A DNA stretch of 64,000 nt from Bilabrum cf. latius. Its lineage: Eukaryota. The first letter of the stretch is position 1. Every line of letters begins with the position of its first letter. Under the pieces are notes generated by a model that searched no databases, was not told the origin of the DNA, and saw only the letters and a program-made list of their open reading frames with translations. Position numbers and translations under genes: made by a program. Shown in pieces: positions 1-42,987 of the stretch. Location: positions 62,001 through 126,000 of the forward strand of contig OZ237740.1 in NCBI GenBank assembly GCA_965178125.1. Reading direction: 5' to 3'.

Positions 1-3000
1 CGCGAGCTCCTCGGCCTCGACGAGAGCCTTGCGAGAGTCCGGCGGCAGGTCGTGCACGTCCTGCTCCAGGACGACCGTCTCAGTCTCGGCTGCCCGCGCC
101 GCCGCCACTGCCGCGGCTACGATTCGCGGTTTGCGCGGACCCGGTTCTATCTTGTCAAGCAGATCTAGCACATCTCCGGCAACCACGGGAAGCTCTGACG
201 TCTCACCCTCCCCTGCATCCACCCCACGGGACACGCCCGATTCACCCCTTCCTCTCCTAGAGTTGTCAGCGCTGCTTGCCACAGAGTTGGCTCCTGAAGT
301 GGCTTTGCTGTTGCCACCCCCACCTCCACTACCACCACTACTGCCGCCCATTCGCCGCCGCCGCCGCCGCCTGCTCGCCGCAGAGGCTGCATCGCCACCA
401 TCCTGGGCACTATCGCTTGCCTTGGGCCTCTAGCTTTTCTCTCTTTCTTGCTGCAGCTGTTCGTAGTACCTCTGTGCCTCTTTAGAGTGGGTCCCTGCAG
501 CCCAGCTGCCTGCGGGCATGGGCAGGTCGGTGGGCAGCGGCCTGAGCCCAATCGACTTCCGGGTCATTTCCACCGTGTCTGTCGCTTGGGGAATCTTCGC
601 GCCAGCATTACGCGGCGACAGGTTCAGTCTACGCCTCATATCTGCGTACGCCCGCTCGCATGCCTCTGCCTCTGCCCTCGTCCTAGCCACCCTCCTGTGG
701 TCGGCATCTACCTCCTACACCTGCCTAGCATGCAGTGCCCTGATGCGCTGCAACTGGCGTAAGGCAACCCTGTCGATGGCGCGGGCTGTGGCGGGCTGAT
801 TTACGTGCTGGTGATCCAACACCACCTCCTGCACCACCGGCACCACGTCGGATTCACCTGCCATCGAGCCACCGAGAGCCATGCACACCTGCCCTCTCGT
901 GGGGAGCAGCTCGCTAGTTTGCATCTCGGGAGTGACGTAGGGGTCACGGATGGCGAGAACTTCGACAGGGCCGAACTCGACCGACTCTGCCTCTTGATCG
1001 TGGTCCGTTGTGCCATCACGATGCACCTTGGCTCTCGCGGACAGCAGGTCCAGAGGGTGCATGCGAGCCTGTTCCTCCTCCTCTTTCGAGCCCCGTGCAG
1101 CGCCATTCAGGGAGCCATTGGCTCCGCTGGGAGCATCAGACTAGATCCGAGAGCGGAAGCTGGAGATGGGCATGGCAGTACCCAGCTTGCGGAGTCCTGG
1201 GCTCGGAGTGGCTCCAGCTTTGGCCTGCCTGTCCTCGTGGCCAGCAGCGGCTCGCACGGCTTCCTCTATTCCAGCGATACCATCCTCCTCTTGCGATCTC
1301 GGACGGATTCGTCCGGCCCGTCCTGCCCTCTCAGGGGGGCGCACCGGTGACATCTCCACGACCACGTCCACTGGGGTCACCGGGGCAGCTGGGCCCCTCT
1401 CCTTGGGCGCATCAATGTGCCTCGCTGGGGGACGCACGGTCCTGCACCGCTCTTCCCAGGCATGCGCCACTGCAAGTAGCTCCATTTCAGTTGTGAAGGC
1501 CGTGACACGGGCCATGTAGGGCATTCCGGCCTTCAGCTGCTTTTCCCCGTACAGTGGCTGGCCGTCGCAGTGCCCAGCGTACTCGACCTGACGCAGCATC
1601 GCCTCTCGTAGCCTCCAGACGCGCACGCGGTGTCGAATCGGTACCCAACTGTGCTGCCCAGGAAGACCACCGGTGCACGGATACAGATCCTGCGAGCTTG
1701 TGCCGGCAGTACGATCATCGTTGGCGCCCGTAGCTGTTGCCGCGGCGCTGTCCATCGCCTTTCCGGACCTGCCGCCTGCGCCCACTGCAGGCAATCTGCG
1801 CCCAGTTAATGCAGCGTTTGGGTTAGCCGAGGCCTGCACAATGATGGGCCCCCTATCCATGGCGAGATCAACCGCATCGCTGTCCATGAGCCCCCTGTAG
1901 CCCCTATTTCGCACCCCTGGAGGCTGGAAGGCGTATAGCTCCACTTCCCGTGCAGGCAGCCCCACTCGCCTGCGAAGGCACGCAAGCAGCTCCCTCATGT
2001 GCGCGAACGTGTCCACACGCAGCGACACCAGAGTCACAGAAGGCAGCCGGGCCGCCCTGTGCACTGGCATGGCTGCGATTGACTGCAGCACGGCGCGGGG
2101 ACTTGCCGTCCCGGTACTGACTCCCCGCAGCAGCGGCCTGGCCCCCGGGTACTTGGACAGCGTCTGGCAGATGCCTTGCAGGATGTCTCGGTTGACGCCA
2201 GACTGCTGCAGCCAGTACTTCGCTACTGCTCTCGGCACGTCGATCTCGCCCACGAGCGTGACAGAGTAGGTGCGGTGCACAGCCGGCACGGGGAGCGTGA
2301 GAACGTTGAAGGACTGGAAGGTGCGCGATCGATTCCCGCAATCTGGGCAGGTGAGCTCGTCCTGCAGCATTCCGCCCACGAGTCGGTTGGGCACGGAGCC
2401 GTCCTTCCTGCAGTGCTGCACCCACGCCTTGACGGCTGCCTGGTACCCCTCCGTGAGCGGCTGTGCCTCAAGCAAGAGAGGGTCGAATGGGACCAGGGCC
2501 TCGCGTGCCTTTGCCCCGGGGTCCTCCAGCTTCGAATTGTCTTCGCTGCTGCCGCCTGCACTGCCTTTGCTTTGTGCGCGCGCCATCGGCCAAGCGGTGT
2601 CGTCCTCGAGACAGCCGAATAGCTTGGCGAGGAGCTCGCCCGCGTCCTGCTGCACGCTGCCCGCCGCATCTGGCCAATGGTTTGCGATGGCCTGCTTCAG
2701 TGCCATCGGCCAAGTGAAGTTAGAGGTGGACTGCCACTGGCCCGCGATTGTTTGGGTGAGGGCCCGGGTAAAGTCTCCGCGGCTGCCGAACTTTGCCGCA
2801 GGGTTGATCAACGTGTCGGATCGGTGTCGCACAGCGATGGCTGCTAGCTCGGGAACGTGCACCAGACACTGCGCGACACGATGAGTATGGAAGAGGAATC
2901 GAAAAAGTTGCTTGGTCGTAAGTTATCTTTGCAAGCATGGCGTGTCATGTTCGCATTTGGCGAGTATGCATTCCAGTGTTTGACCAGGAATGCGTTCTCG

Positions 3001-3555
3001 AATGACTTGAAGGTACTTCACCAGTTAGGGGGTGAATCTCGCGGCAAATACAACTCTTACCTACAAGGGGGCCGCCATGTAGCACGAGTTGCCCAAATTA
3101 CAGAATCCCACTGCGCCTGAACCGACAGGGCCAGAGCCTTGCGATTCGACTTGCTGGCCAGAGGGCGAACCGATTCCGAGAAAGTCTACGAATGAGAACG
3201 CAGGCTATTCAGATGCAGGCTATTTCAGATGCTCCAACATGCTCCAGAGAGACCAAGTACTGATTGCTGCTCCGAAAACGAAGATTGTAGCAGACTGAAT
3301 CCACACGCCGAGGCCTTGGCGTTCCAAAGCGTCCACGATAACCTGTTGAAGCAGCGTCGCTATTCCAAATACCATCAATAAAACCGTGAGTGAACCTACT
3401 GATGTGGGAATAATGCAAAGGGGGTTGCAAATCACATCCCATCTCCAGGAACTTGCTTCGCCTCTCTATTCAGCCACAGGCTCATCCAGCGCAGTTTTGG
3501 GCTACGGAGGTGTATTTGCAACATATGAAGCCCCACCCGTTAGTAGTTGATTCAT
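1..3555 (-). CDS. Ubiquitin-specific protease (USP/peptidase C19) with N-terminal hydrophobic segments; 3' end runs off the window
   Basis: ATG 3555; exon 1 3555-3061; intron 3060-2869 (GTAAG...CGCAG, phase 0); exon 2 2868-<1. Cys-box GFCNLGNSCYMAAPL[TAG]CLVHVPEL, QQDAGELL motif, CxxC (LTCPDCG). In-frame TAG at 3502, 3466, 3220, 3205, 3061, 1141, 715, 430. His-box not seen in window. Confidence 0.9.
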
Positions 3556-3730
3556 GCTGATATGGTTGTGAGAGAGAAGAGCGGCGAATCATGAATTTCT
3601 ATTCTTCTTCTTCGTATTGTGCTCAGTGCCACAGTTTGGCGATTCGTTCGTTCGTTCGCTGGCACCAAGGAATACCCGTCAGAGTATCTACACAGTAGCA
3701 GCAGTGCTGTTGTATAGCATTCATAATTTG

Positions 3731-6700
3731 TCACATACCAAACTCGTACGACCGCACCAGGTCGCCGTAGGCAGTCACCACCCTGCCGTCCTCAACCGAA
3801 AGGGACCTGCAGCCCTGCACCTTCTGCTGGTTTCCCAGCACCGCGGCAACGGCGGCAGGGATGGACGGCTCCTCGCCCGCCCCCGCCCCGCCAGCACGCC
3901 TCCCCCGACGGGCGCGCCTGTTTGAGCCGCCTGCCAGGAGGGCGTAGGCGGGGGCAGCCGAGGCAGGGTCCACGTCTGGCTCACCGAGCAGCGGGAGCTT
4001 CCAGACCTTGACGGCATTGTCCGTGCCCGCCGTCACCAGGAACCGCCCCATGAAAGACGCACTCGTCACACCCTTGGAAGGCAGCGAGCCGCATGCGACC
4101 ATGACGTGCACAGAGCGGCGGCCCCGGAGCCGCGCCAGGCGACGCCTCCTCCACGACCCACTGCCGGTGCCGCCGCTTGCGCCCGTCCCGTCCCCGCCCA
4201 TGCTCCCGGCAGCACATGTGCCAGGTGAAGATCCTGCTCCTGGTGCAGGTGCAGGTGCAGGTGCAGGTGCAGGTGCAGGTGCAGGTGCAGGTGCAGGGCC
4301 TGAGGCAGGTGCAGGTGCCGTCGCTGCGGTCTTTGCGATGAATTTCGCCTCGGCCACGGCAGGTGCTTCCCTTTGAGCCATGACCATGGGCACCGCTCTG
4401 TGCCTGTGCCTGTGCCTGGGTCTGGGCCTGGGCCCTCGACCATGCCATGGGTGCTGGTGCCTTGGCCTGATATACTCCTCCTCATCCTCATCATCGGAGG
4501 AGAGGCCATCATCGATAACGATATCGCCGCGCGCAAACAGGAACGGCGGGTTTATTTGCTGCCCCGGGCGCCACCAGCCCTGACCGCCCAGGACAGCCGT
4601 GTTTGGCATGGCAATCACGTTGCCGCCGGGGGCATTGTCCGAGTCAAGATCATCCCCTCTCCGCATGGCGCCAGGGACGGCCCTTGCAGGGTACATCACG
4701 TACTGCTTGGCTCGCATGCTATACCTGGGAATGAGCGCCAGCTCCCCCTCATCCGGGATGGCAGGGACCCTGGCCTCTTCCCTGCGGAACAGAACCAGCT
4801 GTCCCCTGGAGGTGGATACCGCTGCATACCCACCCGAGGCAACAAATAGCCGCGGGTGGGTCCCGTTGGTGAACTCGGGCCCCTGGGCCGGGTAAGTGAT
4901 CTTGTGGTGCAGGTGTCCCCTGGCTAGCAGCTCGTGAGGAGGAGAGGGCACCAGTCGCAGGTGGGTAGCAAGTGCTGCTTGTGCCGCTGGGGACAGCTCC
5001 ACGGGCTTCATGGCGTCGCCGGATCCGGAGCCAGACGAGGGTGGCTGGCCACCGCTGCTGCCGTGACCGCCCCCGCGCCCACCGCCACGACCACCGCCAC
5101 GACCACCGCCACGACCGCCGCCACGACCACCGCCACGACCGCCGCCACGACCACCACCACGACCGCCGCTACGACCACCACCACGACCGCCGCCACGACC
5201 ACCACCACGACCGCCGCCACGACCACCACCACGACCGCCGCCACGACCGCCGCCGCGCCCACTGCCATGGCGCCTACCGCGACTCCCGCCATCCCGCGGA
5301 ATCGCACCCTTCGACTTCTTCGAGACCTCGGGCTCCAGATCGCTGTCATCGGACTCTGCCTCCAGGGAGATGGGCCCGCACGCATCCGACTATACGTCAT
5401 TATAGACCGCCGTCATCGGTGGTGGGTGGACCTATGGTCCACCCAAAGGCTCGACTAGGTCACGAGGCTGGTCCATCACCTGTGGGGCCACCATTTCAGC
5501 ACCGTGATGCCGAGCTCGGTTCATGGGCCGCGCGATGGCGGGACGGATCTCATGAAGTTGCGGAACCAGCTCAGCCACCGGAGGAGCAGGCATGATGGGA
5601 CCTCTATCAAGAATCAGCTCACCGACCATCCCATTGCCTCCATCTTGCACCCCTTTCCCATCCGGCCCGATGTCCAGCGGAGCCCCACGGCCCTGGGACC
5701 ACATGTATCTCTGGCGACGAGTGGCCCTCTCGTGCGACCAGTAGGACGGAGGCATGCACCCTCGGAACAAGCCTGCCTCGCCTGCGCTAGGGTCGAAGAT
5801 CTGAAGGACGTTGCCGCTGCCGTATGGCTGTGCGCTGGCGAATATGACCTCTCCTGCGCCCGTGAAGGCGTACCCGTTCACTGGGTACGCCTGCCGCCGC
5901 CAGCGGGGGTGGTTCAGGTCTGAGATCAACTGATCAGGGCGGGGATCATCATCTGGCTAGCCTCCACGATCGCTGGTGGTTGCAGCGGCTGCCCCACCAT
6001 CCGCACCTGCCGGCTTCTCCTCACCCCCTGCCCCGCTAGATGCCGCCCCACCATCACCACCCGCCTGTATTCCTGCATCTCCGGCTCCGCCACATGCCTC
6101 TGACAGCGGTGGAATGGTCGGTATGTCAAACGCGGATGGAAGTTCCATTGGGACCTCCGATGGGTCCTTGTGGCCCATCGGGGCGTTCCGGGCCACTGCT
6201 GCTTCTGCGTGTATTGGGCGCACCTGTTGATCCGGAGGAAAGTGTGGTTGAATGAACTGAGGAGGTGGGACCGGTAGCAAGACATCAGGACCCGGCGCCA
6301 CAGGAATCTGGTCCCCACCACCCGCACCACCGTTGCCACCACCCACCGGAAGATCCCCCGAATCTCGCCCCGTAGCCTCACGGACGATCGCGTCCGCATC
6401 GGGGGCTGGCATCCCGATGAGCCTGGATAGGCCCCAGCTCTGCGCCCCGATGGAGATCAAGCCCAGGCCGTGCACGGGGTGGTACGTCGACTGGTCCCCT
6501 TCTTGTGCGCCTGCAATGGTCCACGCCAGCACCACCGACCCTGGGCCCACTCTACGGAGCACCGGGGCGAAGATGCTCCGCTCGTGCGGCTGCCAATCGT
6601 TCGTCTGCGAAGCGGTGCTGGTCACTGGGAGGGCCACAGGGTCCTTGTAGAGGGCGGGAGGGTATTCGTTGTCCTTGCCCAGCACGGTGGGCCTGCCCTC

Positions 6701-8332
6701 TCTCGCCAGCCACTGCTTGTCTCCATCGATCGCTTCCTGCGGCATGGGCCTGCCAATGTAGGCGTCCATCAGATCGCTTCTTCGCTTGAGTCCGGCGTCA
6801 CTCTCTGCCTCCGCCTCGGGAAGGAGCGTGGGTCGGGAGGCGGCAGGGTCGTCGTCGAACAGGCCCCCCAGGTCCGACTGATCTCCGGGTGGCTTCAACC
6901 ACGGCATTTCGCGGCTCCTGAAATCCTCCACGTATCCGCGATCCATCGCGACATCCAGTCGCAGGGGCCGGGAGAGCTCCCTCCCGGTCGCAAGGTCCAG
7001 CAGCCGCACGCACTGGTCCTGGGGCCCTGTCCTGCCCTCCATGCCCAGCACGATCCCCATCCGAGTGCCTGCCTCCAGAGGCACCACACGGCTGACAGAG
7101 GGCCCGCCAGGCGCGCCAGCACCGTCCAGGCCAACCACCCGACCGGGTGCGGTGGACGTTCCGCTATGTGCGGCGCCACTCCCTTCCGTGCTCGGTCCGA
7201 AATGGTACCGCATGCGCACGGAGCGGCCAGGGAGGTACTTGGCCTGCTCCCTCTCGGCGCGGCGACGCAGCTCCACCACTAGACCAGCGTCGTCTGCCTC
7301 CATGGCTCCTGGATCGATCTCATCCTCAACGTCCCGAGGCTGCAGCTGCACCAGCGCGGCGCTGACAGCGACGTGGCTGCGGCTCGCGTCTGGCCGCGGG
7401 CCCCTCCTAGAGAACAGGGGCAGGAGGGCACCGCTTGCCTGCACGGCGCATGCGACCACCCATCCGTCCAGCATGGTCGCAACTACAACAGCGACCAACG
7501 TGGTGTCAAGGCTGAGGGGGACAGGGCCGTCGGCCGCACCAGCTGCAGCCGCCGCCGCTGCTGGCTCCGTCTCAGCCGCACCACCCCTGCCCCTGGCCAG
7601 CAGCGCCTGAAGCAGGGCTAGCCCTTCCGCTGGCTCCAGGGGCTCAACGGACATATGAAGCAGCCGGGAGTCCCCAGGAAGGGGCAGTTCCCCCGCGGTG
7701 TCCCTCGTTGAACCTGTCCCCTCGGGCACGCTGGCCGCCCCATCGACCGTCCTGATCTGCTTGGCGTGGCCAGCCACCATCAGGCTCGTCCCGGAGATGC
7801 CAGAAGATACGATGACTGGCCCTTCACCCCCGCGCCATGTGATAGTCTGGTACTCTCCCGACCTGCCCCCTGCCATGCCGCGTTCCCGGCGCTTGCGAGC
7901 GGCGTACAGCCAGAACCACTTGGAGGCCAATCGGTGCACTTCCGCCTCGCTCAGCTCATCCTCTGTTTCCTTGCTCTCAGCAGCACCAGCAGCTGTCGCG
8001 TCGGCATCAGACTCGCGCTTTGATTGGCCGAGCGCAGCTCTAACGAGGCGGGCGGCCTGTCGGCCATCTCTCGAGTACCGACCGGCATCCACCTGGAACG
8101 CACCAAATTCGCGCTGGGAAAATGTTTTCCACGCCATGTCGGACATGGCAGCTGCACTCAATCTTCTTGACGCAAGACGCACAGCCAGGGCATCGGAGGG
8201 GTCCAGCAATGCGAGCACGGACCCTAGTTCTCGAGACCGCAAATGCTCCATCGTGAGGCCTGAGGATCCAACTGCAGACCCGCCCACGAGCGGCTCCCCA
8301 GCAGATGCAACCGCACCAGATGAGTCTACCAT
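3731..8332 (-). CDS. F-box protein with RGG repeat and C-terminal WD40-like repeat (~1530 aa, TAG read-through)
   Basis: ORFs 5957-8455, 5432-5929 and 3731-5011 share one frame, separated only by TAG (5957, 5432, 5390); ends TGA 3731. F-box-like LRSRELGSVLALLDPSDALAVRLASRRL; WD-like GRFLVTAGTDNAVKVWKL. Confidence 0.75.
4240..4318. repeat. (GCAGGT)n hexamer repeat encoding Pro-Ala on the minus strand
   Basis: Tandem GCAGGT units read directly; PAPAPAPA in the F-box gene frame. Confidence 0.9.
5080..5256. repeat. 12-bp tandem repeat encoding (GGGR)n RGG box
   Basis: About 14 ACGACCRCCRCC units; in the F-box gene frame these read GGC GGC GGT CGT etc. Confidence 0.85.
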
Positions 8333-8698
8333 ATTATTAAACACTGCACTTCGTTTAGGTGGGAGAAAGTCAGGGCTCAGCCGTGGGGATTCGGCGGCTA
8401 CCAAGAGATACGCATCGGTAAGAACAGGGCAATAACTGCATGTCACGTGAATCAACTCAGCATTACGCGCTTGGATTACGGCTATTTATACGACTTATCA
8501 CACACAACCTCACATGTATAGTCAGAATTTAGGAGTATCTTTGAGTACTTGGATGTGAAAGATCCGGCGCTGAACGGCGAGTTGGCTGCAAGGCAGTGCA
8601 TCTGGAAAAAAGGTTGCAACCGCACGAAGGAAATTAAAACCGCACGCAATAACCCGGAAGCATGCTAGATACACTCGCTATTTCAGCCTTAGAATGTA

Positions 8699-23815: not shown

Positions 23816-26800
23816 ATGAGTTCCCGAGCTCTTGAAGAGTCAAGCGGTCATAGCGAAGGGGGGGGGCATGAGGAAGAACTATTCAAGTACGACGAGACCG
23901 GTGGTGCATGGTTTCTGATGATCACCCTGCTCATCGGAATCTGCGTTCGACTCATGACTAAATTTATTCCTATCCCGTACACTGTTGCTTTGCTGTTGAT
24001 TGGCCTTGCCATTGGTGCCATTGAGGCGCACGGAAGGTGAGGTGCACGGATGACGGGAGCAGCTCGCAACCGTTTCCTGTCGGCGCGGGTAGCAAATTTG
24101 GCGCCTTTAGCGTGGAAGTAAATATGGCAATCGCCATTCTGTCTGAAAGGTCTGCACCCCTGACAACGATGCTGATATGCTTCTTTTCGTTGCGATCCAC
24201 CCGTCTACCATTCTGCGCAGCGGGTACCTTGGAGCCGTCGGTGACAGCATCAGCCTATGGACAAACTTAGATCCCCACACAATCTTGACAATATTCCTGC
24301 CTGCACTCATATTTGGCAGTGCTGCAGCTGTTGGTGAGCCTAGCATCGTGAACATGAAGAGAAGGGAGGTCCAGTTTCCCTTCCCGAATTGCACCAGCAT
24401 CGAGTGACGTGCTTCTCGCTGCAGGTTAGTCACAAGCACATTAGCAAGATATCAATGTCAGTCTATATCTCTTTGTATTGCAGACTGGCACGTCTTCAAC
24501 AAGGAAATATTCCAGATGATGCTGCTTGCCGTGCCCGGCGTGATCATGTCGGCCCTTCTCACGGCCGTCGTGGCCGTGTACGTGATGTATCCCGAATGGA
24601 GCCTGTCTACGGGGATCACGTTCGGGGCCATGCTTTCTGCTACTGACCCAGTGGCCGTGGTGGCACTGCTGCACGAGCTGGGTGCAGCCAAGCAGCTGGC
24701 GCTGCTGATCGAGGGCGAGAGCCTGTTCAACGACGGGAGCGCCCTGGTGGTGTTCATCGTCTTTTTAGACTTTATGGCGGGACAGGAGCCCGTCAGAACT
24801 GCCGGTGAAACGGTCGGTTTCTTCATGCGGCTGGCGCTGGGCGGCGTTGCCTTTGGCTGGCTCATGGGGGAGATCATGGTGAAGGTGCTCAAGGCCTCCA
24901 GGCTCGACATCATGACCCAGATCACAGTCACGGTCGTGTGCGCCTATTTCACGTTTATCGTCGCCGAGAACGAGGCGATCCATGTATCTGGCGTGCTGGC
25001 CGTGGTGTGTGCCGGTCTGGTCATGGCCGCCCACGGCTTCCAGCACGTGAGGCATCGCGAGACGCTGAAGCATTTCTGGGAGACTGTGGAGTATCTGGCC
25101 AATACCGTCATTTTCATCGTGTCGGGGGTCATCATATACGTCAAGGGTTTCGCCAGCTTTGGGTCAGGCGAGGAGGGTGCCATTGACGCGTACGACATCG
25201 CCATGCTATTCGTGCTGTACATCGCACTCATGGTCATCCGCACGCTGGTCATGTTCATTCTTTGGCCGTTCCTGAGGCAGATGGGATACTCTTTCAGCGC
25301 CAAGTTTCTCATCGTGATTTCCTACTCGGGGCTGCGGGGCGCCGTGGGCCTCGTGCTGGCCATCATCGTGGAGAACGACCCGAGGATCTCCTCCGAGATC
25401 AGCGGACGCTTCCTGTTCCACATGGCCGGCATTGCCTTGCTGACTCTGACCGTGAATGGCACCACAACCGGGATGCTGCTGAGCTGCCTGGGCCTGTCTG
25501 GTGCCTCCCCCGCCCGCGCGCGCATGCTCAACAAGGCCATCCGCAGGTTAGTGGAGGTCAAGCAGCGATCTGATTTGTTCTCCCAGGCCCAGTACCAGCA
25601 CGCCGAGGAGGATCGGATCCGAACTTTCATGCGGGACATCTTTGAGGAGCTGGAGGCCTAGACGGAGAAGGTCAGGCACCTCGCGAGCCAGCCGGTGGGC
25701 GGGCACCACCTCTCGGGCTGCACCGGCTGCCTCTTCCGCGCCCTGGGCTGCCAGACATTCCTGGAGATCTTGGACGAGGACGAGAAGGCGGTGGAGCAAA
25801 GGGCGGCAGAGGCCAGGAAAGCGGGCTCGTTCGAGTGCGTGCCTCGCTGCCTCAAGTGCATCGTGGACGTGCAGGACATCTGCGACTGCGCCAGGCCAAG
25901 GGAGAGGGACCGCCTCGTGTGCTGCCCCAAGTCCTGCCTGGGGCTGATCGGCCCGTGGTTCGACTCATGCCCCTGCTGCTTCGAGGTGAGCGGCTACACG
26001 AACCGCGCGGGGGAACACGTGGGTGAGGAGTTCCTCCAGAGGTCGGCGGAGCGAGAGGCGCGTGAGGAGCTGGAGGCGCAGCAGCAGGCCAGGGAGGCCC
26101 TGGAGAGGCAGAGGCGGCAGGACGAGCAGGACAGGGCCAGGATGGGCGTCCCGGGCCTGCCCCCCATGAACCGGCGGATGGTGTCCGTGACATCGGATCC
26201 GCAGCTTATGCCTGTTGGTGGCTTGGTTGCCGCGGTGCCCACCCACAGCCACTCCTTCTCCTACCAGCCAGAGGCGATGGCCAACCACGAGGAGGAGGCG
26301 GCCGTCTACGACAAGATGCTGCCCGGTCACGCGTAGAAAACCCAGCTGGAGAGGGGCAGGACGCTGCCTTCCGTGCAGGAGGCGGACTACGAGGGCGAGA
26401 CGATGGAGGGTGCCGAGGGGGCGCATGTCATGGGGGAGCAGGAACTGGATTCTTTGGGGGATGGGGATGGAGATGTAATTGGAGGCAACAAGAGTCGTAA
26501 GGGTGGACGCGTGGCGGTGGGCACTGCTCGCAGCCGCAATGCCTCAGGGGGGTCAACAGGTTCCGTGCTGCCTCCCGGCAGCCCCGGCAGGAGGGGCTCC
26601 GGCGGCTCTGCCTTCGGGTCGCCGACCCGGAGCAGAAAGCCGTTCTCACCTACGGACGGCAAGTCTGCTGGAGGTACTGGCGCCGAGGACGAGCAATTTC
26701 GCAAGGCCACGGACTCCGGCAAGGTCATGGTGAGAACCCAAACGGAGATGTGCATGGCCAACGCGCAGATGCAGCGGGACGGCGGAGAGTCGAGGACGCC

Positions 26801-29800
26801 CACCCCCGTGATGGAAGGAGATGCTACAGTGGAGCAGATGATGGAAGAATCAGAGGACATCGCGGGGATGCATGCTGGCGCCGGCGGTGGGTGCACCCTG
26901 ATGGGCTGCCTGTGCGCCTGCGTGAGTCCGTTCTGCTGCCAGCGGCGCACCCCCGAGGAGATTGCGCGGTCCAAGGCAGATTTCGTACCCGCCGAGATGG
27001 AGATGAGGTATCGCGTGCTTAACATCGTGCGGCAGCGGTACCAGCGGTACTTTGACGATGGGCAGATGAGCGCCAGCGCCTACGACATCCTAATCGACGC
27101 GCTCAACAAGTCGCTAGACCGCGTACAGGACCCGCTCGGCGAATGGGTGAGGGTGAAGCGGTACGCTTCCTACGATCTGTCCCTCCTCCTGTCGCGCTTC
27201 TCCTGCGTCCCTGACGCGCTCAACTTCAACGCGCTAAAGCTCGAGTACGATCTGAGCGTAAACTTCATGCGCGGGCACGAAAAGGTGGAGGACGCGCTCG
27301 CGGTGCTGCTGAGTGACCTCCAGCGCGATGACCCCGACACGTGGGTCAAGGTCGTGGGCGAGTGCAGGCGGCAGTACAAGCTGGCCAGCGACAACTTCAC
27401 CAGCATGTGCTCGCTGCTGCCCGTCCTGCGGGCGGTGCAGACCGACCACGCCATGTCCTACCTGGTCCGTCTCATGGAGCGAGAGGCTGACAGGATCCTG
27501 GCAGCCGGTGACATCGTGGAGGACGAGCATGAGGTGCTAGTAGAGACGCTGCGGGAGGCATGGCACCGTGCGGACAACGTGCGAACGGTGCAGCTGGAGC
27601 CTCAGGAGGAGCTCCGGCGGGTGGGCTACTTCAAGCACCTTCAGAAGGAGCACTTCAGGACGATCTCCAAGGAGGCGGAGTTCATTTTCTACGAGCCGGG
27701 TGACGTGCTGCTACAGGAGGGACAGAGGGCCCCGGGGTTCTTTGTGCTAATGTCTGGGCAGCTGGGCATTCATGCGCGGCTGACTGAGGAGGAGAAGCGA
27801 GAGGAACGGGCCGCGAAGGAACAGGAGCAGCACCAGCAGGCTTCGTTGAAGGCGGGCGGCTAGGGCGACAGCGACACGATCCATCGCACCAACACCGGCA
27901 CCGTCATCGGCCACTCGTCATCCAAGGACTACCACTCGTCTGCAGCACTAGCGGCTGGTCACCCGAAGCGAGCGGTGTCAGCTCTGGACCCCGATGTCGA
28001 CGTGTCTAGACTGGCCATGCACAACGTCCGCGCAGGCTCCAAGAGCTCCTCCTTGGGGGCATCGAGCGCGGGGAGCGGAAAGAGTGCAGACGCCACGGAT
28101 GGTGGCGGCAGCAGCGTTGGGACAGGCAGCAAGCGCACAACCTCACCCCAGACCATCCAGGCCAAGCGGGACGACTCGCACACAGCGCTCACGGTACACT
28201 ATTCTAGAACCACCGTGGAGGACCGACTTCGCAAGAAGCTCGACCTGCCGCTGCCCATGAAAACGGGCGAGTTCAGGTCCATGATGATCGAGGAGAACGC
28301 CACGCCGGCAGATCTGTTCGGCCCGCACAGGGACAACCTCACGAGTGGCAACCTGGTTGGCGTGGTGAGCATGCTCACAGGCACGCCGGCAGTGGTCACG
28401 GCCATCGCAAAGACTAGGTGCTACGTGGCCTGGCTGCCTGCTAAGAAGATCTGGAGGCAGCTCAAGTCGGAACCTCCGTCCGATCCCGCCGTACCTCTGC
28501 GCAGAGTGACACCGCTGGAGAACACCATCTGCAAGATGGCTGGTCTGCTGGTGGCAGAGACGGGCCAGATTAGGGTGTTCAGCAAGCTCAAGCGCTCCGT
28601 GAGGAACAAGCTGTTCAAGCGGGCCATGCTCGTGAGGCCGGAGTTCAGGCAGCCGGTCAAGATCGAGGGCGACATCTTACTGCTCACGGGACGGATCGAG
28701 CGACCGAAAGACAAGCTCCTGGGGCTGTGGATCGCGACGCATCTAGAGAACTACCAGCCAGGCATGGTCTTCTCGCCCCAGAAGCAGAGCTCGCACCCCA
28801 CTAGGGTCGGCTTGGAGGGCAGGAGCCTCGAGCACGGGATGGCCTAGGTCCACGACACGCACCCCGGTGCTGTCGGCACGTCAGGGGCCGCAGCAGCTAG
28901 CACGCCGGGCACGGGCAGGACAAGCAGAAACGGCTCGATCGACGAGAAGTCTGGCGCACCACCCGCCACGCCCGACGCGCGGCCCTTGCGCTCCACCAGT
29001 GGAGACCTCATGTCTCCCAGGCTGGAGTCATCTGACCTGCCATAGAGCGGGATCACTGCTGCGGACCAGGCGCTCTTGAACAGAAACGCGCTGCTGACCC
29101 CCGCCCTCACCCAGCGAGACATTTCGCTCGTGTGCAACGAAGCAGAGCTGCACGCGTCCTCCCAGGTCGTTGTTCCCCGGCAGAGGCTGACCCATCGAGC
29201 CGCCCCAGTGACGTCATCCAAGGCAATGACCAACTCCCAAAGGGCCCACCAAGCCCTGCGGCTGACTCGGCGGTTCCTACAGCCAGACGACGAGATTCCC
29301 ATGTCGGTCGCGATGGCGGTGGCCAAGGGGGAATTCGCCTGCGGTGGCGAGAAGGGTCTCAACGACACAGACTCCGTGGTGTCCTTCGGATCCACGCCCA
29401 GGGGCGCACAGGCCGTGCCACAAAAGGTGCTGGAGGTCATGCTGCAGGGCTTGCAACTGGGAAGAGGCCACGGTCGCACCGACAGCGCGATGAGCACGCT
29501 CACCGAGGGCAGCGAACGACCTGATTCCCCTCGCGTGAATTTCGTCAGTGATGGCATAGACGGTGACGAAGCTGCTCGGAGGGAGGCTCTGGCGCAGAGC
29601 GGACGGCTTGGCGCGGCCGAGATGGCGATGATGACTTCGCAGCGCGCGGGGCCCAAGCTGCACCGACAGCGGTCCAGGGCCCTCGTCCTTGGGTTCGACT
29701 CCAGCAAACAGGAGCAGGGGCCAAGCCCCTCGAGACTCGATGCGGAGCCTGCGGGCAACGGCCTTGAGATGCCAGTGTTCGGTGGAGCCGTTGGAGCACC

Positions 29801-31004
29801 CGGCATGATGCGGGGTGTTTCTGCCCCGCACGCCGACAGGAGGAGGCAGCTAGATAGCTCTGCGGCAGATGCGGCCGGTGCGGCGAGTGGGGGCGCTGCT
29901 GGTGCTGCGGCGAGTCACATACCCGGCCACGCTGCTCTTGCCGACGTGGACGACGTGGCGGTACAGTTGCATGACAAGCCCGCGTTGCCGCAGCGCGCCT
30001 TCCGATCCAAGACAGAGGGCGGGCAGCACCAGCGGTCGGCTCAGGACGACTTGATCGGGCTGCAGAGGGCAAACGGGGGCAATCGGCAGAGCATCGGACC
30101 AAGGGCCGGCCCCAATGCGCATGACATTGACGATTTCGACCCTGACTACCACGCGAAGAACCAGGACGATGCGGAGTCAGTTACATACCAGTGCCACGTG
30201 GGGAACACAGTGGTCAGCAAGACCCTCGAACCTCGCGACTTTGACACCAAGTACTCGCCCTTCCAGTTCGTTCCCTACACTCACACGCGGGGTCGGTTCC
30301 TATGGTTCAGCGCGCATGCCCGCATCCTCGTGTTCCCCAAGGGCATGGTCGCGAGGGAGCTGCAGCGGGTGGACGCTGAGGCGAAGCGGCACGCGAGGGA
30401 GGTGCGAAGGCAGAGGATCGGCCAGGCAGAAGGTGAGGGCGCCATGAATCTGAGAGACGTGGTCCACACTGTCATGGCCGAAAAGAAGCTTCATGAAGCT
30501 GCCGGACTCACCTCTCGTCCGTCTGCCTCGGAGCGAGATATTGAGGACTGCGAGGACGTGGCAGCAAAATGCGATGGCGACGAATGCGTCGACCAGTGCG
30601 CGTTGGACGATACGATGGGAGGCAGTGCGATGCCCGATGGGCTGCCTGCAACGACGAGCACGCCCGCTGGGACTGTCGGGGCGCAAGGAGCTGCCGGTGG
30701 GGCCCGGGGTACACCAGGCGGGCTCAGGATCCGCAGCCCGCCAAAGAGCAAACCGGTAGGCGGTATTCAGCTCCCTGGTAGGAAGGGCGGCGCTGCGGAG
30801 AGCAACTTCATCCGGGCGAGTCGCATGGATAGCGATGTCATGATGGCGATGGGCGTGCTAGCACAGTAGCGTAGGCTGCCCCCGGCGGCCGCTCGCAGTG
30901 CCACTGGGGGGGGCACGCGGGTTGCTTCGTTTCGGGATGATGCCCTAGCGCCCGGATCCAAGGTGGCGGCTCGAGGTCGGTCCAAACTGGGGCCAAGGGA
31001 TTGA
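23816..31004 (+). CDS. SOS1/sperm-NHE-like Na+/H+ antiporter (CPA1) with cyclic-nucleotide-binding domain
   Basis: Introns 24037-24220 and 24334-24483. SATDPVAVVALL, IEGESLFNDG, GLRGAVGLVLA; cNMP-BD YEPGDVLLQEGQRAPGFFVLMSG...GNLVGVVSMLTG. TAG at 25659, 26334, 27861, 28845, 29043, 30867; ends TGA 31004. Confidence 0.9.
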
Positions 31005-31319: not shown

Positions 31320-33697
31320 TTACACGACCGACGTGTCCAGCGCGCCAAGTCCAGCTGCAGCAGGTGCCGCAGCAGAGGCCACGGCGCGCGCCCCCCCACG
31401 CTATCGTGCCCTCATCATGCCGGGAACGTTCCCCGACAGAAGCATGGAGGCGTCCTACACGCTGTGGGCCAGGACCAGGCTGGAGCTGGTGGCTCCCAGC
31501 GCCTCGGCGGAGGCACGCACCAGCTCTCGCTGCTGCGTGGAGCCCGAGGCAGAGGCCATGGCATCGTCCAGCATGCGGATGCGCTCTGCCTCTGCCCTTG
31601 CAAGGATCCCCATGGCCTTCGCCTCACCTTGTGCCCTCGTCACGTTTGCCTGCTGCTCGCTCTCTGCCTTGGTGACGATCACCTGGCGGTCGATGTCGGC
31701 CTGCGTGAGCTCAGTCCTAGCCACAGCGCCTCGGGCCATGGCGATGGCGAGCTCTTTGTCGAGGAACCGGAGGTCCTACAGAGCGATCTCCTCCACGGCC
31801 ACGCCGCACTTCTCCTTGAGATCCGTGGCGAAGACCGACATGAAAGCAGCCCGCAGCTACCGCCTGAATCCACCGGAGGCGTCCTTTCCCGTTGGGTCAT
31901 CCACGGGGTCATCGGAGCCCTCCATTCCCATAATCTCGCCCATGCCGGGGCCGCCGGGGTTCCCACCGCTGGCCGCGGCAGGCGCCTGGTGCTCTGTGGC
32001 CTCCGTCCGCCCCGACTCGGCGCTCCTCTTGATGTTGGCGGTCCTGTCCTGGAGCGGAGACCCGCCCACGATGGTGGCGAGGGCGAGCTTTGCGCGCGCC
32101 ACCACGCTTCGGTTGATGCGCATCTGCAGGCCATGCGCGAGGTTGTCGTGCTCTGCCCGCCTGGACCCCGGCGATGCCTTCGCTGCCGCTGCTGCGGCAC
32201 CACCCTTGCCGTGGCCCGACCTGCCGTCGCCCGACATAGAGCCCTCCGCCCGGGTCGCCGTCTGGTCGTTGGCCAGCATGATCACAGCCTTGCGGGGGTC
32301 CACGATCTGCACCGTCATGGCCGCGTCCAGGATGAGGCCAACGCTGTCTGCGGTCAGCAGCTGCAGCCGAGGAATGCCCAGCGTCTGGATGCCGCTCTGC
32401 GTGAAGCCCTCGAAGTGATCGAGCGGGTTGTTGCGCCTGTGCCGGCCGGGAGGAAGCACGATGATGCGGCCCTGGTCGTACATGATTCCAAAACGACCCT
32501 CAGCCACCGTGATGATGTGCACGGGCCCGTGGCGAATGACGTCTGCGTTCCAGGACACGAGCTCGTGAATGACGAAATCAGGATCGTCAATGTACCTTGG
32601 CTCACCGGGCTCCAGCATCTCTGGGACGCCGTTCCGACTGGCCAGTCCCATTTTGCCCTCTGGCACGATGATGCGGTGCTTGCACTTTGCCTTGATGTGC
32701 TCTTGGCTCGCGGGGGCATCTCCGAGGTAGGTGAACCTCGGGTGGTTGATCCGGTGCGTGCCTGGCCCCAGCAGGTGGCCCACTCCGTCCTGCTGGCAGC
32801 GGCCGATGAAGCCCGGCTCGATGGTGATGATATGCACGGTGTTGTTCTGGATGTTCCTTATCGTGAGGCTCTAGTTGGTGTTGAAGGAAAACAAAGGGTC
32901 GTCGATGACGTGGCGGCCGCCGGGCAGCAGCATGACCGGCGTGCCATCGCGAGTGGCGAGGCCGATCCGTCCGGACGGCACCAGCACGATGGTTAGGGAT
33001 CCCATGTGCACGGATTCTTGGTTATCCGGGTAAATCACGATCTCGTACGCCATGAGAACTGCGGTCCAGTGGTGTCCCGGGGGCAGGATGCAAATGTCCC
33101 CGTTCCAGCGCTCCATCACTCCGTAGGAGCCCGTTGGAATGCGCCTCATCATCAGGAGCAGAATGGGAATCCCGATGATGGATACCATTAGAAATGCAGC
33201 GATGAGATACGCAGAGATGTACTGGCACAGCGAGAAAACATCGCCTGGGGGATCCCCCTGCCTGATTCGCCGGTCGTCGGGCTGAATGAACTCGATATGC
33301 CTGCGATATGCTGAAAGGAATCTTCATTTTATTTGTACGAAATTCAAGTTAGATGAAACTTCCTGGGTACTGCGCATCGGCACACATCGTTGCCCGGTGG
33401 GTGGCAGGCAGATTTCTTCAGCAATCGAGTTTGCTCAGGTAGAACTACTCACCCGTGGACGAAGTGGCCGGGCGCAAAGCCCTCATCTACCGGACCTTGG
33501 TGCCCAAATATATCGAGCAGATGCCTTGGAGTATCTGGAACGAGCGCATCGACTTGATTCGCAGCTATTGACGCGGGCACCACAGACCTACCACCTCGAG
33601 CTCCCTTTCCACCCCCAAAAGCTCCTCCTGAGACTACACCGCCTTCTTGAGCTTGAACATGAGTTTCCTTCTGAAATCCGACTGCATGACTTGCCAT
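31320..33697 (-). CDS. SPFH/Band-7 (stomatin-like) protein with N-terminal repeats
   Basis: Intron 33452-33301. Repeats of type LTIVLVPSGRIGLA..G.PVMLLPG; LTADSVGLILDA; C-terminal KAESEQQANVTRAQGEA coiled coil. TAG at 32871, 31857, 31776, 31455, 31401; ends TAA 31320. Confidence 0.8.
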
Positions 33698-38647: not shown

Positions 38648-38852
38648 CACTAAAGCAAAGTACTCTGCAGTACCCTGCTAGAGCAATACAAGATGCAGTT
38701 GCACTAGGCGACGTGGAAAAATTCCGCGTTCTTTGCCGACACAACTACACGCAACAAACCATTCAAACGGAGATAAACTAGTTGGGCGCTATACAGCCGT
38801 ATCTGACGATTTTGGGCGTTTTTGTATGGTCGGGCAGTAATCTATTGTTCTT

Positions 38853-41800
38853 ATGCGGCGTTTGTAGTCGAAAACTGCCAGGGATATTCACGATGCTGAC
38901 CACGCGATGCTTCGCATCCGCGAGTCCGGTCACCAACAGCAACAGCACCGTGAACGCGGGTTCAAAGCCGATACTCAGATGCTGCAGCACGTGAACGCTG
39001 TTGGCACAGAGCTTGCACAGGAGGCGGATGATCAGCTCGCCGAAATTTGCGACTGGGTTCGCCAGCGGCAGCCACAGGTGGAGCCTGAATCTGAGCAAGC
39101 ACGAGCGCCTTTTGGAGACATAGAGCAGGTGCTCCAAGCAAACACAGAGGAATCAAGTCCGCTACCCAATAAAATATCACTGGCTCGGCAGGAGGTGCCC
39201 GAAGAAGCCCCACGAGGTGCATCTTTGAGGGGAGCTGCCCAGCTTGCGTCTCGGGCCAGGACGGCCCATGCGCGGGAGCTGGCGGCTCGGGCGGAGGCCG
39301 CCAGCCTAAGAGCAACCCTGAGAGAAAGCAAGCGAGGGTCATTGCACGAAGGGGCTAGTGCTCGCATCCGCACAGGAGCGCCGAAATAGTCGCACGCTGC
39401 GGGCCCCCGAGTGATCGAGGTGCGGCCCAGGCCCAGTGGCAGCACCATCCACCGAGAGGACCCTCGCGGGGAACAGAGGCAGTGGGGCAAGAGCAGGGCA
39501 CGTGGAACCGATGCAGGACCTGGTCATACCACTGTGTCCCTGTCCGGCATCGAGGGGCGGCGCAGCAATGCGATGCACCTGACGCATCATGGGGAGGCGG
39601 CAGATCAAGGGACAGCTCGCCAACAAGCATCTGCTCGGGACCCACCAGCAGGCAGCCCGCAGACAGGCAGCTCCGACCCCGGCGAAAGTACCCTATCGCA
39701 GCTCACAGCCACAGCTGACCCACTCGTCACGATGCTCCGCAGGCAGCTGCACAGCTGCGAGCAGGCCCTGGAGCAGGAGAGGAGACGGTCGGCCGACGAG
39801 CGGGCGAGGGGGGATACTGCCATCTCCGCGGCGCGGAGGCTGCGGCGGCTGCTCTGCGCCAGGGAACAAGACCTTCAGGAGTCCGAGCGCCGGCGGCTGT
39901 CACGGCGGCGGGACTCGTTGTTCCCTCTGGTGGAGGCCCCCGGCAGGGAACAAATCGAGGCGGCGGAGCTGCGGGCGGATGCAGCATCGGGCGGCAGGAG
40001 GGCGCTCGAGCAGGAGGTGCGGAGGCTCAGGGAACAAGCCGACGCGCTGCAAGGGAGGCTGCTGCGGCTGGGGGAGCAACAGGGCGTGGAGTAGGTTGCA
40101 ACCGGCAGGTTGGGCCCGTCGGGCGTGGAGGGTCTGGCATCGTCGCCGTATCTGCGGCAGGACAACCCGACGGCGGGCGGGAGGGACCGGCCAGTGGAGA
40201 GGGAGGCTTCGAGTGAGAGGCAGGGTGCAGGTGCAGGTGGCAGTAAGGGGAGGGTGCCCCCACGTCTGCCAGGGGATCATGACCCCGCACTGGGGACAGA
40301 GGGCAGGAGTCTCTATGCGGGTCCTTCAGTGCGGCTGGAGGAGTCGGTCGAGGCGGGGCTGCGGGCGGCCATGGATAGCATGAGAGAATTCGCAGCCGCG
40401 GGGGACGCAATCCCCAGGAAAGCGCCGCAGTGGGATACACCCCACGTGCAACACCAGAACAATGATGCATCCCATTGCGGCAGTCCTTCCCCCTCTTTCC
40501 TCGCGGCATTGTCCTCGGTCAGCGAGGCCGTGCAGTCGCAGGGCACCAGGGCTTCGAGGCTGGGCCGCAGGTGCAAGCGGCTCCAGATGGCGAATGCCAG
40601 GCTCCGGGGGGTGGTGGCCAGACAGCGGTCCCTCCTTCGGCGAGCTGAGAGGGCCTAGCTCGAGAGGGCCAGGCAGCTCTAGAGCTGCGAGGAGGGACTC
40701 AGGCTGGTAGCGGATGGTGCTGGTGTTGGTGCTGGTGCTGGTGCTGGTGCTGGTGCTGGTGCTGGTGCTGGTGCTGGTGCTGGTGCTGGTGCTGGTGCTG
40801 GTGTTGGTGTTGGTGCTGGTGCTTGTGCTGGTGCTGGTGCTGGTGCTGGTGCTGGTGCTGGTGGCTTGCTATTGGGAGAGAGTATTACCATGGGCATAGG
40901 GGATGGGGAGGTTGGTGCAGCACAGTCCAGACCCACCGGTGCATTTAGGAGAGCTGCCGGTGGTCAAAGTGGGTATCTAACGGTGGATCGCCGGGGCTTG
41001 GTATCAATCAGAGACAGCGAGGAGCAGGCCCTCCGGTGGGGGGCTCGGGCCGAGCTCGAGAGGTGCATAGCCCAGGAGGACTCCAGGCTGGCAGAGCGGA
41101 GGGCGGGCGAGGCGGAGGCGGAGACTCGGAGGATCAGCGGTGAACAGCAAGGACTGCAAAGGGCGCTGCTGAAGGCTCTGGGGGAGGCTGCCTCGGCCAG
41201 GGCCAGGGAACAATGGCAGGGGGACCAGGTAAAGATGCTGACGAGTGCGCTGCTCGAGACGTCATCCGCGGCTCAGTCGGCGGGGCAGCGGGCGCGACAG
41301 CTGGCCAGGTCCGCGCAGGATATGTCCGTTGAGCTCGAGGAGGCACTTGCCCGGGAAGACGGGCTGGAGGCGGCGCTGGAGCAGCACAGGAAGGTCTTTA
41401 AGGAACAGGTGAGAGCATGATTTGCTTGGCCGCTGCAGTGCATCCAGTCCTCACTGGGACAGGAGCTGGCCGTGTGGCTGCCGGGGCACTCGTCTGGTAC
41501 CGTTTTGCACTATCCCTCGCTTTGACCCCCCCCCCCCCCCTCCCCTCGTATTAACCCCCCTTGCATTGACCCCACCCCCCCTAGTATCTATCTCTTTCTC
41601 GCAGTCGGCTGCCTGGAAGCAGCACTTCGGCATGCTGCTTGAGGCACTCAGGCAGGCCACGGAGCGGGGCGCTGTGGCGGCAGGGAACAGGGGCGGACCA
41701 GGGAACAAGGGTGGTGCAGCAGGTGAGCCGCTGGTGGCAGGGCATAGGGGGATCGGGTCCGATGCACTGCACGGTGGCGCGGGCAGCAAAGCCGGTGCGG

Positions 41801-42987
41801 ATGAACTGGGGAAGGGGGGCTATGTCCCCGCTGCGGGGTCATTGGAGGAGCTGACTCGCATGGTGGATGCAGCCGAGGCGAAGCGATGGAGGGCAGAGGC
41901 ATGCCTGAGAGCCCTCGGGGAGTGGTGCAAGGGTGTGACGAGTGCGCTGGCGGAGGGGATGCGGACGGGTGCGGACCGGCTTAGCGAGCGAGCTGGCGAA
42001 TTAGCGCAGGCAGCCTTCAGGCTGCGCCAGTGTGATGAGTGCAACACACCACACGGCACGACACCCCTCGGTAGAACAGCCGGTGCTGGGGCTTATGCCA
42101 GCGCTGGAGTCAGCACCGAAGCAAGCGCTGGAGTCGGCGCGCGAGCCGCCGGTGGAGCCCTTGGCTAGCACCTCTCCAGATCGGTCCGGGGAACAAGCGA
42201 GAGCAGCTCGGCTTGGGCCCTCGAGGCGCTCGGGACTGCCCTGCGGACGGCCTGGCAGGTTGCAACCGCCGCGCTCAAGGCCAGAGAAGGTGTGACGAGC
42301 TCCACGTCAAGGCAAGAAGGGTCCGAGTTGTCGGCAACCCAAGCAGCCCCGAAGGCCACGTCTGGACCCGGCGCCGCGCGCCGGTTGGTTCCGCAGGCAG
42401 CAGAGGGCGACGATTCGTCCGGAATGGAGGCGTGGTGGGCCGGCCGAGCCGCTGCCCTTGGTGCCTCATTCGATCGGAGCATCGACAGGCTGCTCCCCTC
42501 CGCACTGGCTGATGCCACAGGCCGCCCCACCCTTCGCGGCCTCGCGCGGCAGGTGGCGGCGGCATAGGCGGCTCTCGAGCGGGAGGCAGGTCGCAGAAGG
42601 AAGGCGGAGCAGCTGCTCGCTCGCTGGTCGCAAGCGCGCGGCGCCTCCGCTGCGCCCGAGGTGCTGGCCTCGCAGCCGTAGTAGTCGCCCGAGGCCGGCA
42701 GTGGAGGCGACAATGGAGGAGGAACAGCAGCCAGCAAGACGATCGGCTCCGGATCCACACGGTGTGACGAGTGCAGCGCCGCGCTCACCGCTTGCGAGGG
42801 ACTCGCGGAGGCGGCGGCGGACGCGACGCGAGCCGCCGTGCGGGCCCGTCGCGGCGAAGAGATCGCCCTGGCAGAGGCCTGGCGGGAGAGGTAGCTGTGC
42901 CGCGCGCTCGCTCGAATCGCGGGGGACTAGAGCCGGGGGAAGCAGTAGCAGCAGCAGCAGACCGGCGCACCTCCGGATACAAATTGA
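38853..42987 (+). CDS. Coiled-coil hypothetical protein
   Basis: Same-frame ORF chain joined by 12 TAG codons; intron 41409-41604 (GTGAG...CGCAG, phase 0, poly-C inside). E/R/A/L/Q-rich helices; ends TGA 42987. Start could instead be 38907. Confidence 0.7.
40716..40862. repeat. (GGTGCT)n microsatellite, ~24 units, encoding Gly-Ala in the coiled-coil gene
   Basis: Read directly; in frame with the flanking coding sequence. Confidence 0.95.

Follow-up and report, generated by a model that had tools for sequence, protein, structure and literature searches.

A UAG codon at the conserved glutamine of a ubiquitin-specific protease points to a probable UAG-only change of the genetic code in a GC-rich eukaryote

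What does a TAG codon mean when it stands in frame in the catalytic core of a protease gene? The question is raised by a 64,000-nucleotide stretch of contig OZ237740.1 (positions 62,001 to 126,000 of the forward strand; hereafter called the window), whose minus strand carries a gene for a ubiquitin-specific protease (USP). In this gene, TAG occupies positions 3063-3061 and is the last codon of exon 1. After removal of the intron, it lies in frame, preceded by the Cys-box helix and followed by the residues C-L-V-H-V-P-E-L, and it is very probably read as the Gln that USPs almost always carry at this place. Such a reading had been proposed in an earlier note on this DNA, made without database searches. 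We examined it using USP homologs, fragments of the same genes from close relatives, the use of TAG in the other genes of the window, and contigs of public sequencing runs that contain the gene.

The TAG codon and the conserved glutamine column

The Cys box is encoded on the minus strand by fifteen codons (3064-3108, with GGA at 3108-3106), which read GGA TTC TGT AAT TTG GGC AAC TCG TGC TAC ATG GCG GCC CCC TTG and are translated as G-F-C-N-L-G-N-S-C-Y-M-A-A-P-L. They are followed directly by TAG (3061-3063), which takes the place of the conserved Gln after the Cys-box helix (the L-Q-C-L position). The oxyanion Asn and the catalytic Cys (N-L-G-N-S-C) are both present, the latter encoded by TGC at 3084-3082. 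After the TAG comes a spliceosomal intron of 192 nucleotides (2869-3060, minus strand) in phase 0 and with GT..AG ends: it opens with GTAAG at 3060-3056 and closes with CGCAG ending at 2869. Exon 2 then opens with TGT CTG GTG CAC at 2868. The earlier note had placed the Cys box, the TAG, and the intron at these same positions, and a rereading of the minus strand found all of them correct.

To read the column opposite TAG, the exons were joined by their coordinates, X was written for the TAG, and the product was aligned by phmmer to 151 USP homologs from two protein searches. The column is covered by 130 of the homologs (21 do not cover it) and holds Gln in 126 of them, the remaining four having Ala, Ser, Glu, and Lys once each. 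No gap was needed anywhere in the Cys box across these 130 homologs. The Gln described by the earlier note as near-invariant at the position of TAG is therefore found in 126 of the 130 aligned sequences, and the TAG does not fall in a non-Gln column. Exon 2 alone matches the Pfam family UCH (PF00443) with 34 bits (gathering cutoff, 23.9; E = 3e-08), its residues 1-282 lying on profile positions 18-154 of 254 and its first residue on position 18. Judged from these alignments, the match is more than chance, because exon 2 starts at UCH position 18 and the codon that precedes it lies in the Gln column.

The residue read at TAG and the extent of the change

The identity of the residue can also be read from close relatives. 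Public protein collections contain open reading frame (ORF) fragments, derived from public assemblies, whose identity to three genes of the window is 86-96%; they are evidently standard-code calls cut at in-frame stops. These fragments cover six TAG sites of the window, at which the relatives have Gln four times (residues 418, 1480, and 1546 of a Na/H exchanger and residue 538 of an ABC transporter) and Glu twice (exchanger residues 643 and 1152, in a relative that is 95-96% identical). The surroundings of the three exchanger Gln sites are identical or nearly so, whereas around the two Glu sites the sequence changes fast: about 15 residues there contain two other changes in one case and five in the other. 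Left out of these counts were P0179 (65% identical, with A and G at two TAG sites in gapped stretches of low similarity), the second, paralogous alignments of P0177 and P0180, and residue 916 of the ABC transporter, which is deleted in P0178. None of the five exchanger TAG positions covered by the 95-96% identical fragments was shared by those fragments, and TAG sites therefore turn over quickly.

The places where the relatives' ORFs end give a second count. Among 11 such ends, three fall on a TAG of the window (P0001, P0006, and P0178), five on Gln codons (three CAG and two CAA), one on TCG, one on GGC, and one at a diverged true C terminus. One of the five Gln codons belongs to the conserved exchanger domain, and its Gln is retained in three other relatives. 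The binomial chance that five of the eight ends outside TAG would fall on Gln codons is about 5e-6 (hand calculation), Gln codons making up 3.8% of the codons in the long ORFs of the window (602 codons; CAA:CAG, 116:486). Taken together with the USP column, these comparisons make it very likely that TAG is read as Gln.

The reading that comes next is Glu, the meaning that UAR has in peritrich ciliates and Blastocrithidia. It would account directly for the two Glu residues among the six sites of the relatives and for the one homolog in 130 with Glu in the USP column, and GAG is one step from TAG. The same column has Gln in 126 of its sequences, the relatives have Gln at four of the six sites, with the exchanger ones in better conserved contexts, and Glu codons account for none of the 11 ORF ends, for all that they outnumber Gln codons in the long ORFs (865 versus 602). 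Since GAG and TCG are each one step from TAG, the Glu and Ser cases look like replacements at Gln sites. A Glu or Ser code would instead require a replacement at every one of the nine Gln cases and in the USP column as well. We therefore regard Glu as very unlikely.

That TAG is a sense codon, as the earlier note had assumed for this site, holds across the whole window. The three longest stop-to-stop frames have 1,011, 842, and 837 amino acids under the standard code and 2,198, 1,645, and 1,584 amino acids when TAG is read through. Reading TAA instead leaves the ORF lengths almost unchanged, and reading TGA makes the longest frame barely longer (1,106 versus 1,011 amino acids). The ORFs with Pfam domains that are interrupted by TAG only are those of the Na/H exchanger with a cNMP-binding domain, a full ABC transporter, an alpha-galactosidase, a Dim1 methyltransferase, an SNM1-type nuclease, a Band 7 protein, and a TPM+RING protein. 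In all, 78 in-frame TAG codons were counted among the 16,509 codons of 16 long ORFs, with up to 8 in a single ORF. In contrast, TAA was never found inside the long ORFs, being confined to the 5' flanks, the USP intron, and the last 5 codons. About 18 TAA would be expected from the CAA:CAG ratio, and the code therefore looks like a UAG-only change, probably with TAA kept as a stop.

Termination agrees with this pattern. The stop is TGA in 12 of 14 long ORFs and TAA in the other 2, and none needs TAG as its end; translation is ended by TGA and probably also by TAA. In the two ORFs that end in TAA (at 31320-31322, minus strand, and 45821-45823, plus strand), the reading frame meets a TGA 4 and 5 codons past that end. 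For the 12 ORFs ending in TGA, the distance to the next TGA is 4 to 36 codons, or no TGA follows within 50 codons. With only two cases, the succession of TAA and TGA may be chance, a tandem back-up stop, or a sign that TAA is read. We read the window as nuclear DNA from a GC-rich eukaryote (about 62% GC) in which introns are few.

A TAG that is read only in part, or only in certain contexts, and that still ends some genes, as stops do in Condylostoma-type codes, is less likely again. Nothing speaks for it directly, and the true C termini are known by homology for few genes, so that some leeway exists. However, with none of the 14 long ORFs in need of TAG as an end, and with as many as eight TAG codons in one ORF, inefficient readthrough would leave almost no full-length product.

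Still lower in our ranking is a residue other than Gln or Glu, namely, Ser, Leu, Tyr, Trp, or Lys. TAG is read as Leu in the rhizarian exLh. For Ser, one ORF end of a relative (P0177) falls on a TCG of the window, in a low-complexity stretch and with a one-residue unaligned tail, and PMC8271138, in its available text, reports for a green alga that TAG alone has changed, to Ser, while TAA and TGA still serve as stops. Against these residues, the USP column has Ser and Lys in 1 of 130 homologs each and Leu, Tyr, or Trp in none, and the relatives have none of the five at the six TAG sites that they cover.

The splice junction and the weight of the evidence

Whether the TAG reaches the message depends on the splice junction next to it. 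Eight public runs contain the USP stretch, and four of them (X5 to X8) were compared with the window. None is recorded as RNA, and the run types are guesses (X6, "probably DNA"; X7, "RNA?"); X6 and X7 come from different studies. In a contig of X6 (record 7; 3,630 nucleotides), window positions 1-2868 are joined straight to 3061-3556, and a contig of X7 (record 19; 582 nucleotides) has the same joint between 2868 and 3061. Both joined contigs are free of gaps and of other letters, including over 3061-3556. The 192 letters that they skip begin with CT and end with AC on the plus strand, i.e., GT..AG on the strand of the gene. The position of the joint is ambiguous by two bases, and the joined sequence is TTG TAG TGT CTG either way. 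The depth in the intron bin 2922-3048 was zero in X6, X7, and X8, and X8 had no coverage at the USP splice junction. In X5, one DNA contig spans the whole 3,800 bases with the intron included; this contig may be the window's own source. The intron also stands out in composition, its GC content being 0.469 versus 0.641 in exon 2, and TAA or TGA is present in each of its three frames.

Because the joined contigs of X6 and X7 retain the TAG with no other letters, the TAG is neither removed by splicing nor edited. The earlier note had considered a different donor that would remove it, and both contigs keep TTG TAG before TGT CTG. A real stop (a pseudogene, a TAG lost by another splice or by RNA editing, or an artefact) is the least likely of all explanations: GT dinucleotides do occur 4, 25, and 41 nucleotides upstream of the end of exon 1 and contigs drop rare variants, which makes a minor isoform possible, but none of these GTs can be paired in frame with the nearby AGs (+21, +25, and +28), the frame stays open for 956 more codons with a UCH match above the Pfam cutoff, a relative is 90% identical over 575 residues of the USP frame, and the same defect would have to hit every long gene in the window.

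If TAG is indeed Gln, it would be decoded by a tRNA-Gln with the anticodon CUA, derived from the normal tRNA-Gln, and eRF1 would no longer recognise UAG. Both steps are proposed by analogy with other UAG- or UAR-to-Gln codes, as these are described in the available text of PMC2984419 and PMC9161772.

Several points weigh against the Gln reading, beginning with the two Glu sites and the TCG end described above. ARAGORN found no tRNA genes in the window, and a scan of the window with Rfam gave no match at gathering scores. Only one TAG of the window was found at a deeply conserved position, the rest being located in linkers, insertions, or low-complexity sequence. The TAG of Dim1 is in a small insertion relative to human DIMT1, and those of the ABC transporter, the exchanger, SNM1, the alpha-galactosidase, and the Band 7 protein are outside the matched domain stretches. 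The earlier note had called the USP site the best single evidence. This stands insofar as no other TAG of the window was found in such a column, but the comparison with close relatives, with its two Glu and one Ser, is cumulatively at least as strong. The end codons of the relatives are themselves deduced from the ends of proteins, and the two ends opposite CAA would fit TAA as well as TAG, so that TAA may also be read as Gln in the clade. The frequency with which Q stands next to a residue did not discriminate between the readings (next to X, 0.058; Q, 0.068; E, 0.051). The summed ORF length is larger if TGA is read (62,449 amino acids) than if TAG is read (43,968 amino acids). It rises most with TGA because this is the commonest off-frame stop in this GC-rich DNA (per 1,000 triplets, 16 TGA, 6.5 TAG, and 3 TAA); to tell the codes apart, one has to turn to the longest ORFs and to the genes supported by homology. 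Should X6 prove to be DNA, its joined contig would represent a DNA copy that lacks the intron, with the TAG still in frame. Finally, the His box of the protease is not among the 956 codons of exon 2 in the window, which makes the competence of the enzyme, and with it the constraint on its Gln, less than certain.

The USP gene and its neighbours

The placeable part of exon 1 covers 3061-3555 on the minus strand, with the first ATG, the putative start codon, at 3555-3553. It carries two hydrophobic stretches ahead of the Cys box and four further in-frame TAG codons (3504-3502, 3468-3466, 3222-3220, and 3207-3205). The last two belong to a short direct duplication (window 3205-3222, minus strand) in which A-A-T-A-G-C-C-T-G-C occurs twice, giving two TAG five codons apart in K-X-P-A-S-E-X-P; the second TAG of the pair seems to have arisen by this duplication. 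Position 3556, one base ahead of the ATG, is where the joined contigs from X6 and X7 both come to an end, and no loose end is present there; this hints, weakly, at a very short 5' leader. In a low-depth contig of X8 (depth, 3.9), 109 letters inside exon 1 (window 3385-3495) are skipped, with GT..AG ends on the plus strand. This skip could reflect a spliced antisense transcript or an assembly artefact.

Exon 2 (1-2868, minus strand) has 956 codons in the window and runs off its left end. Record 7 of X6 covers it without a joint and extends 266 letters beyond the window edge. Its in-frame TAG codons are at 1143-1141, 717-715, and 432-430, and the ORF of the relative P0001 ends exactly on the first of these. 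The N-terminal half of the USP catalytic domain is encoded by 2023-2868, with the QQDA box at 2652-2641 and the first C-x-x-C of the zinc ribbon. Among solved structures, exon 2 matched chains of USP15, USP4, USP11, USP8, and USP21, with E values down to 6.2e-11. Its residues 1-90 align to USP15 from C-L-S-N-T-P-P-L through the QQD box, and residues 144-199 align to the zinc-ribbon stretch of USP15, where the first Cys pair alone is seen. The last 35 codons of exon 1 matched the USP21 Cys box (2y5b_A, E = 0.27; 3mtn_A, E = 0.38), matches that are weak with so short a query, and this alignment ends one residue before the TAG.

For the His box, no G-H-[YFW] motif and no match better than an E value of 0.36 turned up past residue 300 of the 956 exon 2 codons in the window. 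Either the second half of the domain lies beyond the window, or the catalytic domain has a very long insertion, or the enzyme is incomplete. The window protein shares the Cys box, the QQDA box, and the first C-x-x-C with the known USPs of family C19 (USP15, USP4, USP11, USP8, and USP21), but its best non-self homologs are just 24-37% identical to it. In this protein, hydrophobic N-terminal stretches stand in for a DUSP domain. Searches for the USP domain in JGI metagenomes matched 69 patterns, and tblastn confirmed none of them.

Other frames of the window have features of their own. The exchanger frame (24408-31004, plus strand; 2,198 codons) unites a Na/H exchanger domain and a cyclic-nucleotide-binding domain in an arrangement that resembles the sperm-type exchangers. 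The frame at 3731-8485 (1,584 codons) matched no Pfam family and contains about 25 G-G-G-R repeats (4900-5300, minus strand) and a run of Pro-Ala dipeptides (at about 4200). Gly-Ala runs recur in 38841-41417. The ORF at 38841-41420 (plus strand) ends in CAG GTG AGA GCA TGA, which resembles a donor site, and an ORF with the same coiled-coil, Ala/Gly-rich make-up continues in another frame at 41413-42987; the two are probably one gene split by an intron.

Lineage leads and known code variants

The protein affinities are weak leads to the green lineage. The best solved matches of the alpha-galactosidase, 6f4c and 1uas, which we take to be plant enzymes, score 259 and 254 bits versus at most 193 bits for the others, fungal and animal structures among them. 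The SNM1 and exchanger domains are nearest to Atlas clusters dominated by Streptophyta or Chlorophyta. Dim1 matched human and yeast equally. The polyadenylation signal of chlorophytes is TGTAA, and it was found in none of 13 3' flanks; AATAAA was also in none and TGTAG in 3 of the 13. This result and the small number of introns count against a green lineage. An aphelid origin, considered with the published UAR-to-Gln code in mind, had no support from anything tested. Tentatively, and with some doubt on our part, the window could come from a lineage new as a code variant, one that would be GC-rich, with few introns and plant-like protein affinities, and that would read UAG alone as Gln, a variant on record so far from just one fornicate and two ciliate lineages. 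In such a lineage, TAG positions would turn over fast between relatives 95% identical in protein, and termination at UAA would perhaps be weak and backed by a nearby in-frame UGA.

The first consequence of the change concerns annotation. The standard code breaks every long gene of the window into pieces, and public collections already contain such pieces for relatives. Nuclear codes in which UAG and UAA differ in meaning are few, and each case tests how eRF1 and tRNA-Gln distinguish the two codons. The USP site offers a clean anchor for a rare code variant, confirmed in the joined contigs of two studies; it introduces no new principle. If the code of this lineage has already been described, the finding is a routine confirmation.

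A change from stop to Gln is the commonest change among nuclear codes. In one form, both UAA and UAG are read as Gln (the pattern of NCBI table 6). The available text of the cited papers places this code in ulvophycean green algae (PMC2984419 and PMC8271138), in the aphelid Amoeboaphelidium (cited in PMC5304391 and PMC6299283), and in hexamitid diplomonads, oxymonads, and many ciliates (PMC2984419, PMC8271138, PMC5304391, PMC6299283, and PMC11687900). In ulvophytes, TAG is described as much commoner than TAA, in step with the GC bias (PMC2984419). The window shares with these UAR codes the reading of a stop codon as Gln, one C-to-T transition from CAG, and the use of TGA to end genes. It differs from them in having no in-frame TAA beside its 78 TAG and in having two ORFs that end in TAA.

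In the part of PMC8271138 available, the green alga Scotinosphaera is claimed to have reassigned TAG alone, to Ser, and to use TAA and TGA as stops. The window seems to have the same restriction to TAG, and a green-algal lineage would fit the weak leads described above. However, the window supports Gln (126 of 130 homologs, 4 of 6 sites in relatives, and 5 ORF ends) and not Ser (1 of 130 homologs and 1 ORF end).

Gln as the meaning of UAG only, with UAA kept as a stop, is known from Iotanema spirale (Panek et al. 2017, PMC5304391; PMC9161772) and from two phyllopharyngean ciliate lineages (PMC11687900), again according to the available text of these papers. The eRF1 of Iotanema is described there as having a Thr-to-Gly change in its GTS motif (PMC5304391 and PMC9161772). 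In the literature covered, mainly the main texts of open-access papers, we found no GC-rich non-ciliate eukaryote with UAG-only Gln besides Iotanema. Unlike Iotanema and the ciliates, the window is GC-rich, has few introns, and has some best matches of plant type, and nothing links it to fornicates or ciliates. With all of them, the window shares UAG as a very likely Gln codon and TGA as the main terminator, and its long ORFs likewise contain no UAA as a sense codon, although the part played by UAA in the window is less certain. The window thus fits the UAG-only Gln pattern best, a kind of system that is already known.

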